Assembly: GCA_951406725.2 (NCBI GenBank)
Contig: OX597823.1
Span: 111,600,001-111,664,000 of the forward strand
DNA from: Octopus vulgaris
Lineage: Eukaryota
Direction: 5' to 3'
DNA: 64,000 bases
The position numbers were made by a program, and so were the translations under genes. How positions within the stretch are numbered: the first letter of the stretch is position 1; the number at the start of each line of letters is the position of its first letter. Positions 22,951 through 61,259 of this stretch are shown here, piece by piece. Under the pieces are notes generated by a model. It had not been told where the DNA came from. It searched no databases and saw only the letters and a program-made list of their open reading frames with translations.

Positions 22951-23548
22951 AGGAACTAAAGGTATGTTTTTGCCAATGTTTGCAATGATAAACCCGTTCT
23001 TTAAACAGAGCGAACAAGAAGATTTACCTTTATCATATGGAAAAGACCTAGATAGAATATTTCATTAAACATACCATCAGTTCCTATAAGTAATTTCTAC
23101 CATTCTATAAAATTCGACCTTTAACTATCTTCTTACATTTCCTTTCCACTAAATATTTCCACAATTTTAAGCTCTATTCCCATTCATCTATCGCACTACA
23201 TTTCTACTATTTTCTTTTTTCTCCTCCTTCTCTTTCTCTAAATTGCATTTGACGTTAAATCTATTAATGGTATTTAAAAAAAAATAACTTGCCAGTTTTC
23301 CCTTCATCATATATGCAGTCATCACATTAGGGTTAAAATGGCTTATTGATGTTGTTTCTCCTTTTTTCCCTGATGAGAAGATCTCATTGTTTTACATCAT
23401 GTTATTCCCTCTGGAATAATACCAATGTTTTCTTTGAAACATATGTTGGAAGTATGAAAATTTGAATAACACCTGTGTTTATCTCCATTTCTATATTTAT
23501 CTGCTATACAAAAATATTTCACTTAACCCTGAAATTTCTACCTGTTTT
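22951..23548 (+). mobile_element. PLE-like 3' fragment/pseudo-LTR between (TG)n and (TA)n
   Basis: Contains an HHR. Its first 19 bp (22951-22969) are an inverted copy of 23067-23085 (17/19 match), and it ends in (TA)n. The PLE assignment is inferred. Confidence 0.6.
23366..23451 (+). ncRNA. type I hammerhead ribozyme motif, core intact
   Basis: TTCC-CTGATGA-GAAGA...TCTTT-GAAA-CATATG-TT-GGAA. Stem I is TTCC/GGAA, stem II GAAGA/TCTTT, stem III the palindrome ACATATGT, and the triplet GUU. Confidence 0.8.
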
Positions 23549-23903
23549 ATATATATATATATATATATATATATATATATATATATATATATATATGTAT
23601 GTATATATGTATATATATATATATATATATATATATATGTATGTATGTATATGTATATGTGTATATATATATATATATATATATGATGTGTATACTCATT
23701 GTAAATGTATATACAAGAATACATATATGCATAACATTTCAAATGCAAGGTAAGGGTTTAATAAATATATAATTTAGCCTCACTAGCAGAAATATATTGA
23801 GATTTCATCTCAAGTTTATTCCTCTGTGGGAGTAAAAATGTATCACATAGTGAATTTTCTGGTTTTCAAACTATTTCCCATTTACAGAAACAGTTGCAGC
23901 CTA

Positions 23904-24460
23904 TCTATTATATAAAATCCGATCTGTCTGTGTGTCTTCTAGGATCTCGGACATCTTCCTTCTGATTGCGCTCAAATTTGATATGTAGATACCGACGGTA
24001 TCAGGGCATGTATAAGTCTTGAAAAAATTACAAAAATCGATTCCAGGTGAGAAAGCGATCGATAAAGCTGTGGGAATGTGCATTTGTACGTACAAGTACA
24101 TCAGCTGTTGTGATCGATACTACGCGTATGCAAGAAAAATGTCCATGCAGTTTGCGCAAAAAAGCTGGCTGGCTTGAAATAATGCCACAAAATGCAGTAT
24201 ATTTAAGAGACCAAAAACGTAAGGTGCAAAAGAGATATTTTCTTCAAACTTGGCATGAAGGAAGGAAAGACTATTTGGTTCTCAAGAAGTTTTTTTTTCT
24301 TTGCCTTAACTTCGTTTAACAAAACCAAAAATTTTATTGAAATAAAGGCATGCTTAATTATTTTTTAATGAAAAGAAAACACTGATTGCTTTTTATTCAG
24401 CAGATATGATTCACCACCGTCCATTGGATGGGGGGGGGGGCGTTTGACTCGTTCCTACTA
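23904..24460 (+). mobile_element. possible non-autonomous Helitron-type element 5' part
   Basis: A|TCTATTATATAAAA start followed by a CTGTCTGTGTGT tract, and the body retains CpG. No 3' CTRR end was located. Confidence 0.4.
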
Positions 24461-25026
24461 ACTGAGTATTAAGAGTTGATCAAAAAGTTAATTATGTCAA
24501 GTTTGTATAGTAGAGCAAGTAATGACACAACTTAGCTTTGCCATTGGATTAATTTGGAATCTAATATAAAGCTTTAACATTTCCAGCATCCTCACATTTG
24601 TGTTTCATTAACTGACATCCAGTGTTGGTCTGTTTATGTCCCCATAACTTTGAGGTTTGGCAATAAGTATCTGATGGAATAAGTACCAGCCATAATTGTG
24701 CACTGGGGTTGATTCAGTTAACTAAACACTTCAAGATGATGCTCCAGCATGGTCGTTGTCCAGTGACTGAAATAAGTGAAAAACATAAAAGACTTCTATG
24801 TAGTTTTGATTTCAAAAATAAACTAATTTGTTACACTTCAAGTTTATCCCCCCATGGGCTGAAAAAATGTAGAGATTAATCTTATCTGATTAGTTTCTGG
24901 TTTTTATAAGTCTTCATTAGAGAAAGACTAACTATTTTCTATAGGCTATGAGAATAACAAATTATAACTATTTATAGTGTATACAAAGTACCGATAGTCT
25001 AATTAGCATAAAAGTATATACACTAA

Positions 25027-25255
25027 GGCGGCGAGCTGGCAGAATCGTTAGCACGTCGGGCGAAATGCTTAGCGGTACTTCGTCTGCCACTACGTTCTGA
25101 GTTCAAATTCTGCCGAGGTCGACTTTGCCTTTCATCCTTTCGGAGTCGATAAATTAAGGACCAGTTACGCACTGGGGTCGATATAATTGACTTAATCTGT
25201 TGTCTGTCCTTGTTTGTCCCCTCTGTGTTTAGCCCCTTGTGGGTAGTAAAGAAAT
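25027..25255 (+). mobile_element. SINE family B, full length, 14-bp TSD
   Basis: AAGTATATACACTA at 25012-25025 and 25256-25269. Confidence 0.94.
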
Positions 25256-25387
25256 AAGTATATACACTAGTAATGTGAATATGAATGGGACCAGTTATAT
25301 GTGAGCTACACAGCTCCATACATTCTCATTGGTTAATTTGAAGGGCAAAGTAAACATTTTGAAAACATTCAATATTATTAATATCAA

Positions 25388-59461: not shown

Positions 59462-59650
59462 AAAGTACAAAATGCTTAGCAGTATTTCATACATCACTAC
59501 ATTCTGAGTTCAAATTCCAATGAATTCGACTTTGCCTTCCATCCTTTTGGGTTCGATATAATAAGTACCAGTTGAACACTGGGGTCGATGTAATCGACTC
59601 ATCCTCACTTCCCCCAAGCTGCCTTTGTGGCAAAAATTTGAAATAACTAT
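59462..59650 (+). mobile_element. 5'-truncated SINE family B variant
   Basis: AAATGCTTAGCAGTATTTC...GACTTTGCCTTCCATCCTTTTGGG. Confidence 0.8.
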
Positions 59651-59964
59651 TTTTTAAAACTATCAACTTCTTCCATTTCAGTTATATTAAAGATTCAAGA
59701 ATACAGGTTTGTTATACTTAGTTGATTAAAAGAAGAATCTCTCCATTATTTTCTCCATCCAAATTTCATCCTTAAAGCTATATATATATATGTATACTTT
59801 CGAGCCGTGTGCTTATAGTGATACATTATATGGTTATCGACAATTAAGTCTATATTTCGGCATATTTGGCATTGGAATTTTTTCTTTTGCCCTTGTTTAT
59901 AAGTTGTATATATATATATATATATATATATACTCAAAATAAGCAACAAAGATATTCAAGGTAG

Positions 59965-60052
59965 TGTAGTACAATCGTTTCCTCCTACTTCATTTTATTA
60001 AACACTGTAAGTATTACATCAGTTTTAAAATGTCGAGCAATCTTCAGCCACA
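59965..60052 (-). ncRNA. hammerhead motif of the same family as 35165, with stem II decayed
   Basis: TGTGG-CTGAAGA-TTGCTC...GAAA-CGATTG-TA-CTACA. Confidence 0.65.
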
Positions 60053-60615
60053 TATAGAATTTTTTAATTAAATGGACAATGTACACCTTTTTATACATAT
60101 TTCATTTGCCAGGATATATATATATATATATATATATATATATATATATATCTTAGTTCTAATTTTTTATACAATCCAATTGTTTCCAATACTTTTAGTC
60201 TTTATACTTATTTATTTATTTTTTTGACTATCTATTAAATTACAAACAATTAAATTAGAATTACATCTTAGTTAATTCCCTATATCCATGAAGACAGTGA
60301 GGTCACATCCTTAGGCAATGCAGCTCACACAATAACATCAAACAAGAGACATGCTCTCTCACAGGCAGTATCCATTAAGATCCTAGAACTGTTCCCTTAA
60401 TACGTTTAAAATCCATCATAGTTTCAAAACTAAATCCCTTGAGAGAAAATGTTAGGGTGATCTAAAGTTGCGTATGATTAAAAAGTGAGATGTGCTGTTT
60501 GATGGCCTTTACTTATGCATGTTGCACATTGAAAATCATGTTGTTGATGCTTCTAAACATATTAAATCCACACTGACTTTCAACAAAACGTTTTTCAATT
60601 ATCTGAGTAGCAGTT

Positions 60616-61259
60616 CTATTTGTGAAATGCTGAGCGGTATTTCGTCTGTCGTTACGTTCTGAGTTCAAATTCTGCCGAGGTCGACTTAGCCTTTCATCCT
60701 TTCGGGGTCGATAAATAAAGTACCAGTTTCGCACTGGGGGCCATATAATCGACTCAATCCCTTCGTCTGTCCTTGTTTGTCCCCTCTATGTTTAGCCCCT
60801 TGTGGGTAGTAAAGAAATATATATTTAAGAGATGAGGAATTCTGTACATTATTTACATTATTTACATTCGACCGAGTGCAGATAAGAGCAGCATATGGGA
60901 ACCGGTATTAAGGAAGGATAGAAAATATTAGATTTATAAGTCCTAAAAGTTACTCCATAATTGCCCATGGGCATATGGCATAGTGGTTAAGAGCATGGGT
61001 TACTAACCCCAAAATTCTGAGTTTGATTCCAAGCAATGACCTGAACAATGATGATGATGATGATGAAGATGAAGATGATGACGGCAACGACGACGACGAC
61101 GATGATGATGATGTTGAAAAATACCTTAGGAATGAGAAACTAGGTTCGAAATTTCCCCAAGACACATGAAGAAGGCTGGAGAGTATATCAACCGAAACAT
61201 TGTGTTAACAACCATCAAGTTGAGGACAAATATCCGTCAAATGTAAATAATGTAAATAA
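60616..61259 (+). mobile_element. composite insert: truncated SINE B, inverted tail copy, tRNA-like head, (GAT)n and HHR-like motif; 16-bp TSD
   Basis: TATCTGAGTAGCAGTT at 60600-60615 and 61260-61275. A-box-like TGGCATAGTGG near 60976 and B-box-like GAGTTTGATTCC near 61019. Confidence 0.8.
61161..61206 (+). ncRNA. decayed minimal hammerhead motif
   Basis: GACAC-ATGAAGA-A-GGCTG...CAACC-GAAA-CA-TT-GTGTT. C3 is substituted, and ACGT>ACAT is consistent with CpG decay. Confidence 0.55.

Follow-up and report, generated by a model that had tools for sequence, protein, structure and literature searches.

We identify nine predicted type I hammerhead ribozymes, members of multi-copy families, in a 64,000-nucleotide stretch of the Octopus vulgaris genome (the window: assembly GCA_951406725.2, contig OX597823.1, positions 111,600,001 to 111,664,000; positions below are counted from its first letter). 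They lie at the 3' ends of dispersed insertions. Some of these insertions are truncated ends of Penelope-like elements (PLEs), and others units without an open reading frame (ORF) that likely borrow a reverse transcriptase (RT) and a GIY-YIG endonuclease, by a mechanism that we infer below. An original prediction made from the letters of the window alone had placed nine hammerhead motifs here, and all nine are where it put them: five fit a type I descriptor and four are decayed copies.

Nine motifs in eight families of dispersed repeats

The descriptor requires a stem I of at least 4 bp, C[TC]GANGA, a stem II of at least 3 bp, GAAA, a self-complementary stem III and UH, and tolerates an optional extra nucleotide after A9, a 10.1/11.1 mismatch in stem II, and U4C. 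In the window it matches five sites, with cores at 23370, 35170 and 42055 on the forward strand and at 48400 and 57849 on the reverse strand (predicted cuts are given in Table 1); families are named by these numbers. The decayed sites have cores at 41065, 48751 and 60047 (reverse) and 61165 (forward), and each deviates from the commonest letters of its family, which build a complete hammerhead. The core, stems and topology of a type I hammerhead are found at the five sites themselves and, for the other four, in the family majorities. BLAST of 219 hammerhead matches against the window returned the nine sites only. Cores at 17782, 17853 and 17934, and further CTGANGA..GAAA places, were rejected because their stems are missing.

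All eight families are dispersed repeats, as predicted. The host sequences had been described as unrelated except for one pair, and this is correct: the 35170 and 60047 copies are relatives (one clan), so that nine sites make eight families. The minimal hammerhead that had been invoked holds for only two of the eight families (stem III of CG type); the remaining families have a stem III of 3-5 bp and a long stem II.

Matches to the descriptor exceed those in shuffled sequence, five against none in 100 local dinucleotide shuffles of the window, although this count is partly circular because the descriptor was written once the family majorities were known. An earlier, untuned descriptor found one site (strict) or three sites (loose) in the window, against shuffle means of 0.03 and 0.18. 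In a six-row alignment of the 35170/60047 clan, both sides have changed in 9 of 13 pairs and 93.6% of cells pair, a level reached by 0 of 500 shuffles. In about 2 Mb of sampled DNA, the core 3-8 pair is C-G in 200 matches, U-A in 19, A-U in 4, G-C in 1 and mismatched in 14, and no variant occurs in two shuffles. Thus, every Watson-Crick combination is represented at the 3-8 pair in this genome. The four A3-U8 matches belong to one family (locus L206) and the G3-C8 match to one random locus.

Several results weigh against the identification of the motifs. The covariation test tilts towards structure because five of its six rows were descriptor matches. The Rfam check proposed in the original prediction failed: model RF00163 scores 42049-42128 at 24.8 bits, below the cut-off of 34, and no hammerhead reaches the cut-off among 12 related loci (the model is 45 nt long, and the hammerheads here carry long stem II insertions). 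An Rfam scan of the whole window gave no hammerhead among the 150 matches listed of 442, those listed being microsatellite artefacts. The minimum-energy folds of 23370, 35170 and 42055 differ from the active fold, and the folding z of the five intact sites is only -1.4 to -2.1.

The genome comprises 2.8 Gb in 227 contigs. First-look searches (40 candidates scored per family) yielded at least 2,057, 1,593, 2,061, 2,374, 1,929, 3,235, 103 and 2,982 candidates for the eight families, and the 57849 family has 9,358 exact intact cores genome-wide, against 0 for the reversed control. A random sample of 80 stretches of 10 kb (0.8 Mb) contains 25 intact motifs (6 within one array), or about 30 per Mb, and 0 in 10 shuffles. 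This extrapolates to about 87,000 intact motifs in the genome (95% range 57,000-129,000). Five or more in 64 kb has a Poisson probability of 0.053, or 0.024 without the one tandem array; the density of the window is near the genome average and nothing exceptional. BLAST in the random 0.8 Mb found no match for the 23370, 48400 and 41065 families and 2-10 for each of the others. The 219 hammerhead matches, an enriched sample with duplicates, form 40 clusters at 85% identity and 31 at 70%, which suggests that the motifs of the genome come from roughly 30-40 families. The diverse, very high-copy set originally proposed is thereby upheld. Intact copies make up 23/30, 18/25, 6/25, 19/25, 13/20, 16/20, 0/20 and 4/20 of those inspected across the eight families. 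A further family is present at L317:3700-4700 as a 492-nt tandem plus an inverted copy; its hammerhead is long, with 8 bp in stem I and 5 bp in stem III.

Penelope-like parents and a tRNA-like head

Three of the eight families (57849, 61165 and 23370) are 5'-truncated ends of protein-coding PLEs from three clades. In each, RT followed by GIY-YIG is encoded in one ORF, in the same sense and upstream of the hammerhead; all copies are degenerate. Extension of the families toward PLE RT/GIY-YIG ORFs, as the original prediction suggested, therefore succeeded for these three, in agreement with its proposal of Penelope relatives. Its description of the elements as non-coding does not fit them, and stands for three closed ORF-less families described below. 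Two points count against the clade assignments: Pfam recognised nothing in six of six degenerate ORF fragments, and the names were assigned from motifs rather than from a reference tree.

All 12 long copies of the 57849 family terminate in the 57849 hammerhead, and their 5' ends form a ladder along a CA-rich 3' untranslated region (UTR) of about 2 kb. At locus L346, RT, a CX4CxxC linker and GIY-YIG are contiguous with 2 kb of UTR and the 57849 end (tblastn E 1e-24). Based on the linker and GIY-YIG, we assign this family as Neptune-type. A CX2-5CxxC linker before GIY-YIG and a microsatellite target are both Neptune features, the linker being common to Nematis as well. We rejected a long interspersed element (LINE) of R4/Dong type, suggested by L316, as the parent. 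Three further Dong copies end in a 3' sequence of their own that lacks a hammerhead, a hammerhead-like piece beside a fourth was inserted separately at (TA)n, and L346 provides a PLE parent. At L002, a 57849 copy has a different, short upstream sequence resembling an endonuclease C-terminus, and L317 holds three 57849 copies inside 800 bp.

For the 61165 family, L179, L248 and L280 run from RT thumb and GIY-YIG into a tRNA-like head and the window sequence. The ORF matches a Pfam-confirmed PLE ORF (blastp E 1e-9 and 5e-5), and the nearest database protein, P0001, carries RVT_1. There is no zinc-finger linker between RT thumb and GIY-YIG in L248, L179 or P0001, as expected for Penelope/Poseidon. 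The lack of this linker and the RVT_1 homolog lead us to classify the family as Poseidon-type. The window copy retains the last 19 codons of the ORF; final ORF codons persist in two window copies (Poseidon-type and Hydra-clade).

The 23370 family has RT or endonuclease remnants in the same sense at L059, L062, L076 and L080, and L067 is also RT/endonuclease-linked. CxxC and CxH occur in L059 and in the window, where the inverted arm holds the endonuclease end. A word-based homolog search found nothing among 1,876 candidates; a HMMER search found 403 relatives at E<=0.001. Three full-length homologs have RWK (3/3), CxxC (3/3), DKT (2-3 of 3), CxH (2/3) and CxCX5C (2/3). The Hydra clade is defined by RWK, DKT, a CxCX5C linker, CxxC and CxH around E and N, and a (TA)n target (PMC8557442 section 11; here and below, sources are cited from their accessible text). 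By these motifs, we classify the 23370 family as a Hydra-clade PLE.

Intact 781-aa RT/GIY-YIG ORFs are present in the genome. Many belong to a young Neptune-type family (L296, L297, L299-L303), which has a possible upstream ORF and a 3' end with a hammerhead-like motif (U3-A8 core, weak stem I) followed by (TA)n. At L313, a Neptune copy combines a textbook ORF, a sense hammerhead and an inverted upstream arm. At L297 and L298, copies of the 60047 and 48751 clans seem tied to the 781-aa family, a link that we rejected because they are separate insertions in its (TA)n tail. RT/endonuclease fragments near L098, L119, L183 and L037 are absent from other copies and were treated as neighbours.

The Poseidon-type family carries a tRNA-like segment about 35 nt past the stop codon, followed by a trinucleotide run and a minimal hammerhead. 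Of 15 copies, 12 have an A box and 11 a B box, spaced as in a tRNA and both called against the type 2 RNA polymerase III (Pol III) consensus. The hammerhead body lies downstream in 29 of 34 head matches (duplicates included). Among the 5' starts of 32 arms, 17 fall within -12 to +6 of the head, 7 in the following 44 nt and 8 upstream. Exact patterns occur genome-wide 4,356 times for the A box, 1,992 for the B box, 932 for the 44 nt upstream and 402 for the ORF end; corrected copies number about 14,000, 13,000 and 3,000 for the A box, B box and 44 nt upstream. Among copies with a head, about 80% reach no further upstream than the head, and there is no loss over 52 nt inside it. Because most head-bearing copies begin at the head, the autonomous PLE probably sheds a short, hammerhead-bearing RNA resembling a short interspersed element (SINE). 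The tRNA-like segment would likely start a short Pol III transcript, and the element's own protein would spread the SINE-like copy.

A predicted Pol III start is the simplest reading of the 5' boundary at the head, and the one we favour with some reserve. The alternative, that the 5' ends pile up through RNase P-like cutting of a long transcript or through fold-back at a short inverted repeat before the head, is possible but clearly less probable. Three of the 17 head-start arms (L177, L178 and L168, read by eye) resemble local fold-backs, starts at the head scatter from -7 to +5, and the cloverleaf is degenerate and not recognised as a tRNA. However, 10 of the 17 are joined to inverted partners whose breakpoints vary (in the leader, the head, the trinucleotide run, the body or the tail) while the start of the direct arm is constant, and the A and B boxes fit the Pol III consensus at tRNA spacing. 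Counting against the Pol III start, ARAGORN called no tRNA at the head in any of 13 sources and Rfam none either, the copy-number correction is rough because subfamilies differ, and none of 22 cases linked the pattern of the ORF end to that of the B box. SINE heads are usually degenerate. The wider proposal is that a Poseidon PLE with a tRNA-derived Pol III promoter in its own terminal repeat sheds a hammerhead SINE at about 4:1 over parent-length copies, and that PLE enzymes also copy circular retrozyme RNAs into (TA)n; here we see the chances as even. No tandem arrays of the Poseidon-type family were found among 20 loci.

ORF-less units and insertion at (TA)n

The 42055, 48400 and 48751 families contain head-to-tail junctions without an ORF, in 5 of 25 loci (period 435-458 nt), 6 of 20 (520-547 nt) and 3 of 20 (477-478 nt), respectively. 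The 14 junctions share one form, in which a fixed tail connects the 3' end of one unit to the 5' start of the following one; most involve a partial upstream unit rather than two full hammerheads. A contig of a presumed RNA sequencing run contains the 42055 junction at a 434-nt period. Judging from these junctions, the three families are closed, ORF-less, retrozyme-like units of 435-550 nt.

It is rather unlikely that all eight families are merely 5'-truncated ends, or partial tandems of pseudo-long terminal repeats, of autonomous PLEs, with no non-autonomous lineage among them. Three families are indeed ORF ends, PLEs make partial tandems with tails (PMC8557442), and rare long copies can be missed as loci were chosen by best match to short queries. 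Such ends would not readily account for the ORF-less junctions, with their fixed tail and 435-547 nt period, or for the identical junction in the contig. Against closed units moved by PLEs stands the lack of any ORF-bearing partner sharing sequence with the three families; consequently, the case for trans-mobilisation rests on insertion anatomy. Also unfavourable are the 35170/60047 clan and the 41065 family, in which closure was found in 0 of 25 and 0 of 20 loci and which have no ORF link either.

The presumed RNA contigs match the 42055 family and not the window locus. Contig ends at 42117-42118 (four contigs, two runs, one study) were rejected as a sign of cleavage, since they fall 5 bases short of the predicted cut and are spanned by other contigs. 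Locus L228:1-2100 (63079703 onward, same contig) holds at least six identical 359-nt hammerhead units plus an inverted head beside (TA)n, and presumed RNA runs of two studies each yield one 390-nt closed contig of it (unit + 30; depth 276 and 22). These contigs and the 434-nt 42055 junction fit circles or tandem transcripts alike, the runs being only presumed to be RNA.

The original prediction held that these elements target (TA)n. This stands for six families and partially for one, and fails for the Poseidon family. Against a background of 5.6%, a (TA)4 starts no more than 25 nt from the 3' end in 27/30 copies of 57849, 23/25 of 42055, 12/25 of 60047, 13/20 of 48400, 14/20 of 48751, 5/20 of 41065 and 0/20 of 61165. 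In the Hydra-clade family (23370), 15 of 25 copies end at (TA)n, 96-155 nt beyond the query. A second (TA)n cluster about 95 nt further out, in 10, 7 and 5 copies of 60047, 48400 and 48751, marks an optional tail. Seven of the nine window copies have (TA)n at the 3' end, the exceptions being 41065 and 61165. An inverted arm overlaps the element at 28 of 185 loci (counted by eye; pairs wholly in flank dropped). Variable 5' truncation, the inverted 5' arm and the optional tail, all present here, are features of endonuclease-positive (EN+) PLEs.

Internal 5' ends do not pile up at the hammerhead cut site (2 of 123 lie within 3 nt), and hammerhead-cut RNA was therefore rejected as the insertion template. 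This agrees with results for a Poseidon element, for which uncut RNA is the main template in vitro; its protein nicks AT-rich DNA and starts inside the RNA, and the ribozyme is not needed for insertion (PMC11167929).

We suggest that the protein of a PLE nicks DNA that is AT-rich or (TA)n, and that reverse transcription of uncut RNA, either multimeric or circular, then begins at one or two fixed sites within it. An early stop or flip would leave 3' pieces of 150-500 nt with the inverted 5' arm and the optional tail. Most pieces retain the hammerhead, as its distance from the 3' end is 60-230 nt. Closed units would be moved in trans by the PLE reverse transcriptase and GIY-YIG endonuclease. The hammerhead is likely active only in tandem source loci, as a dimer via its palindromic stem III, and dimeric cleavage may turn multimeric transcripts into units able to circularise. 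Solo copies such as the nine are probably inert by-products. Evidence on dimers is unfavourable in Xenopus, where one of nine cleaved in vitro (10.64898/2026.07.22.740005).

Dispersed hammerheads could instead be functional regulators that cut host pre-mRNA here and elsewhere, a role we consider very improbable. Intact-looking motifs number about 90,000 and occur on both strands, and some stems III of 4-5 bp might fold as monomers. However, copies decay freely, from 0/20 intact to 16/20 and 23/30 by family and with four of the nine window copies broken, and this decay of solo copies makes a host role unlikely. The core is trapped in predicted folds, and monomeric PLE hammerheads are poor at cleavage (PMC4209133). 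The ORF list of the window holds microsatellite frames and LINE fragments only, among which we recognised no host exon, and we see no sign that this locus has a host function. That the motifs are chance matches in AT-rich, repeat-rich DNA can be set aside almost with certainty: the bare core word CTGANGA is not enriched (34 in the window against 27 +/- 5 in shuffles) and the Rfam cut-off is not reached, but the shuffle controls of window and random sample and the compensatory stem changes between families refute it.

Relation to known systems and features of the window

Hammerheads in PLE repeats, their U3-A8 variant and dispersed solo copies were described by Cervera & de la Pena 2014 (PMC4209133), and the (TA)n bias of Hydra and Neptune PLEs by Craig et al. 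2021 (PMC8557442). The octopus families share with the pseudo-long terminal repeats of EN+ PLEs a type I motif near the 3' end, a palindromic stem III, mostly solo truncated copies, inverted 5' arms, tails, the U3-A8 variant and, for the Neptune and Hydra clades, (TA)n targets (PMC4209133, PMC8557442). They differ from published PLE cases in density (about 30 per Mb) and diversity (30-40 families), compared with about 9,000 motifs in Xenopus and more than 6,000 in 16 families in coral. Unlike minimal PLE motifs, those of the Hydra and some Neptune families here have a stem III of 2-3 bp and a long stem II.

The closed units resemble non-LTR retrozymes (Cervera & de la Pena 2020, PMC7229834; Li et al. 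2026, 10.64898/2026.07.22.740005) in being ORF-less head-to-tail units of low GC with a canonical type I hammerhead, and in occurring as monomers, dimers and arrays (here L228) beside active PLEs. At 435-550 nt, they are longer than the typical retrozyme of about 300 nt (PMC7229834) and inside the 51-972 nt range of 10.64898/2026.07.22.740005. In contrast to retrozymes (PMC7229834), most occur singly, as dispersed pieces beside (TA)n that show inversions and tails of the PLE type.

The Poseidon-type family is similar to Sm-alpha and Sj-alpha of Schistosoma (PMC6765202; PMC2770079), where a tRNA-derived Pol III-type head precedes a hammerhead in tens of thousands of copies. Unlike in Sm-alpha, the head lies within the 3' UTR of a coding Poseidon-type PLE, about 3,000 copies keep upstream sequence, and the hammerhead is minimal; the accessible text of PMC6765202 and PMC2770079 does not place Sm-alpha inside an autonomous PLE. 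The Anolis Poseidon PAc (Frangieh et al. 2024, PMC11167929) also has an internal RT start, fixed ends plus a tail, AT-rich targets and a hammerhead dispensable for insertion, but its hammerhead overlaps the ORF start and no tRNA-like head is described in the accessible text. Dimeric cleavage via a palindromic stem III is known (PMC4209133, PMC6765202).

Hammerhead counts exceed 38,000 in Schistosoma (PMC2770079) and reach 120,000 in axolotl (PMC7229834); thus, the load here is high and not a record. In its accessible text, an octopus repeat annotation reports 31 recently active Penelope-like families without mention of ribozymes (PMC13282606), a squid annotation lists 235 Rfam hammerheads (PMC6962438), and a mollusc SINE paper mentions neither hammerheads nor Penelope (PMC4758252). 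We found no account of octopus PLE hammerheads or of a tRNA head within a PLE in the literature searched; Repbase, Dfam, subscription journals, supplements and the Zenodo library of PMC13282606 lie outside that search and may contain these families. The element class is known, and what is new is a variant architecture in the Poseidon family, in a lineage for which we found no description.

The octopus genome joins the few with about 100,000 hammerheads, a load missed at the Rfam cut-off. Its ORF-less units share the (TA)n target, a fixed internal 3' end, the tail and the inverted 5' arm with Neptune and Hydra PLEs of the same genome, and this shared anatomy supports the idea that PLE enzymes move retrozymes. 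Given the intact 781-aa PLE ORFs and young identical arrays, trans-mobilisation is directly testable in octopus. The tRNA-headed Poseidon family suggests a possible origin of Sm-alpha-like hammerhead SINEs from a PLE. If this is true, one genome shows a route from a PLE terminal repeat both to an Sm-alpha-like SINE and to a retrozyme.

Table 1. Hammerheads and their host insertions in the window; clade and cut-site entries are predictions from sequence
Feature	Position	Strand	Basis
Inverted 5' arm of Hydra-clade PLE copy; endonuclease C-terminus, frameshifted	22951..23066	-	BLAST to L059, translation
Hydra-clade PLE 3' end: last ORF codons 23067-23093 and 3' UTR, then (TA)n	23067..23545	+	
Type I hammerhead; core 23370-23376; palindromic stem III; predicted cut after 23447 (GUU; family GUC)	23365..23452	+	
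Copy of 35170/60047 clan, (TA)n at end	35065..35268	+	
Type I hammerhead; core 35170-35176; predicted cut after 35246 (GUA)	35164..35252	+	
Copy of an old family, 70-81% identical to relatives; hammerhead decayed, with G5 changed in core 41065-41059; cut site 40986	40875..41127	-	
Inverted 5' arm of 42055 copy	41870..41973	-	
Piece of closed ORF-less unit (435-458 nt, retrozyme-like), (TA)n at end	41974..42320	+	
Type I hammerhead; core 42055-42061; 10-nt palindromic stem III; predicted cut after 42122 (GUC)	42047..42130	+	
Piece of closed ORF-less unit (520-547 nt); hammerhead 48405-48330, core 48400-48394, predicted cut after 48335 (GUA)	48170..48520	-	
Piece of closed ORF-less unit (about 478 nt); hammerhead core 48751-48745, cut site 48703; one broken pair each in stems I and III	48560..48880	-	
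Final 209 nt of Neptune-type PLE, flanked on both sides by (TA)n	57722..57930	-	
Minimal hammerhead of Neptune-type copy; core 57849-57843; predicted cut after 57823 (GUU)	57853-57819	-	
Copy of 35170/60047 clan, stem II decayed; core 60047-60041, cut site 59970	59935..60112	-	
Short inverted arm (3' tail) of Poseidon-type copy	60821..60869	-	
Poseidon-type PLE: last codons 60872-60931 and start of 3' UTR	60870..60968	+	
tRNA-like segment: A box 60976-60986, B box about 61021-61030 (one change in window copy)	60969..61030	+	
Trinucleotide run, decayed minimal hammerhead 61160-61206 (core 61165-61171, C3 changed), 9-nt repeat tail	61048..61262	+	

The window has 34% GC and is rich in microsatellites, and 39% of it matches repeats within 1.9 Mb of other loci. 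Short repeats are very abundant (e.g., 2836-3289, 14211-15764 and 25004-25634), match hundreds of other loci and are probably tRNA-derived SINEs. Broken LINE fragments with a restriction-like endonuclease end lie at 50474-52036 and 17209-17511, and also at L316; from their motifs, we presume them to be R4/Dong-like. An inverted 3' fragment of a 48751-family relative, without a hammerhead, occupies 59799-59905 and shares a (TA)n run with the 60047 copy. The 48400 and 48751 copies lie head to tail across a single (TA)n.

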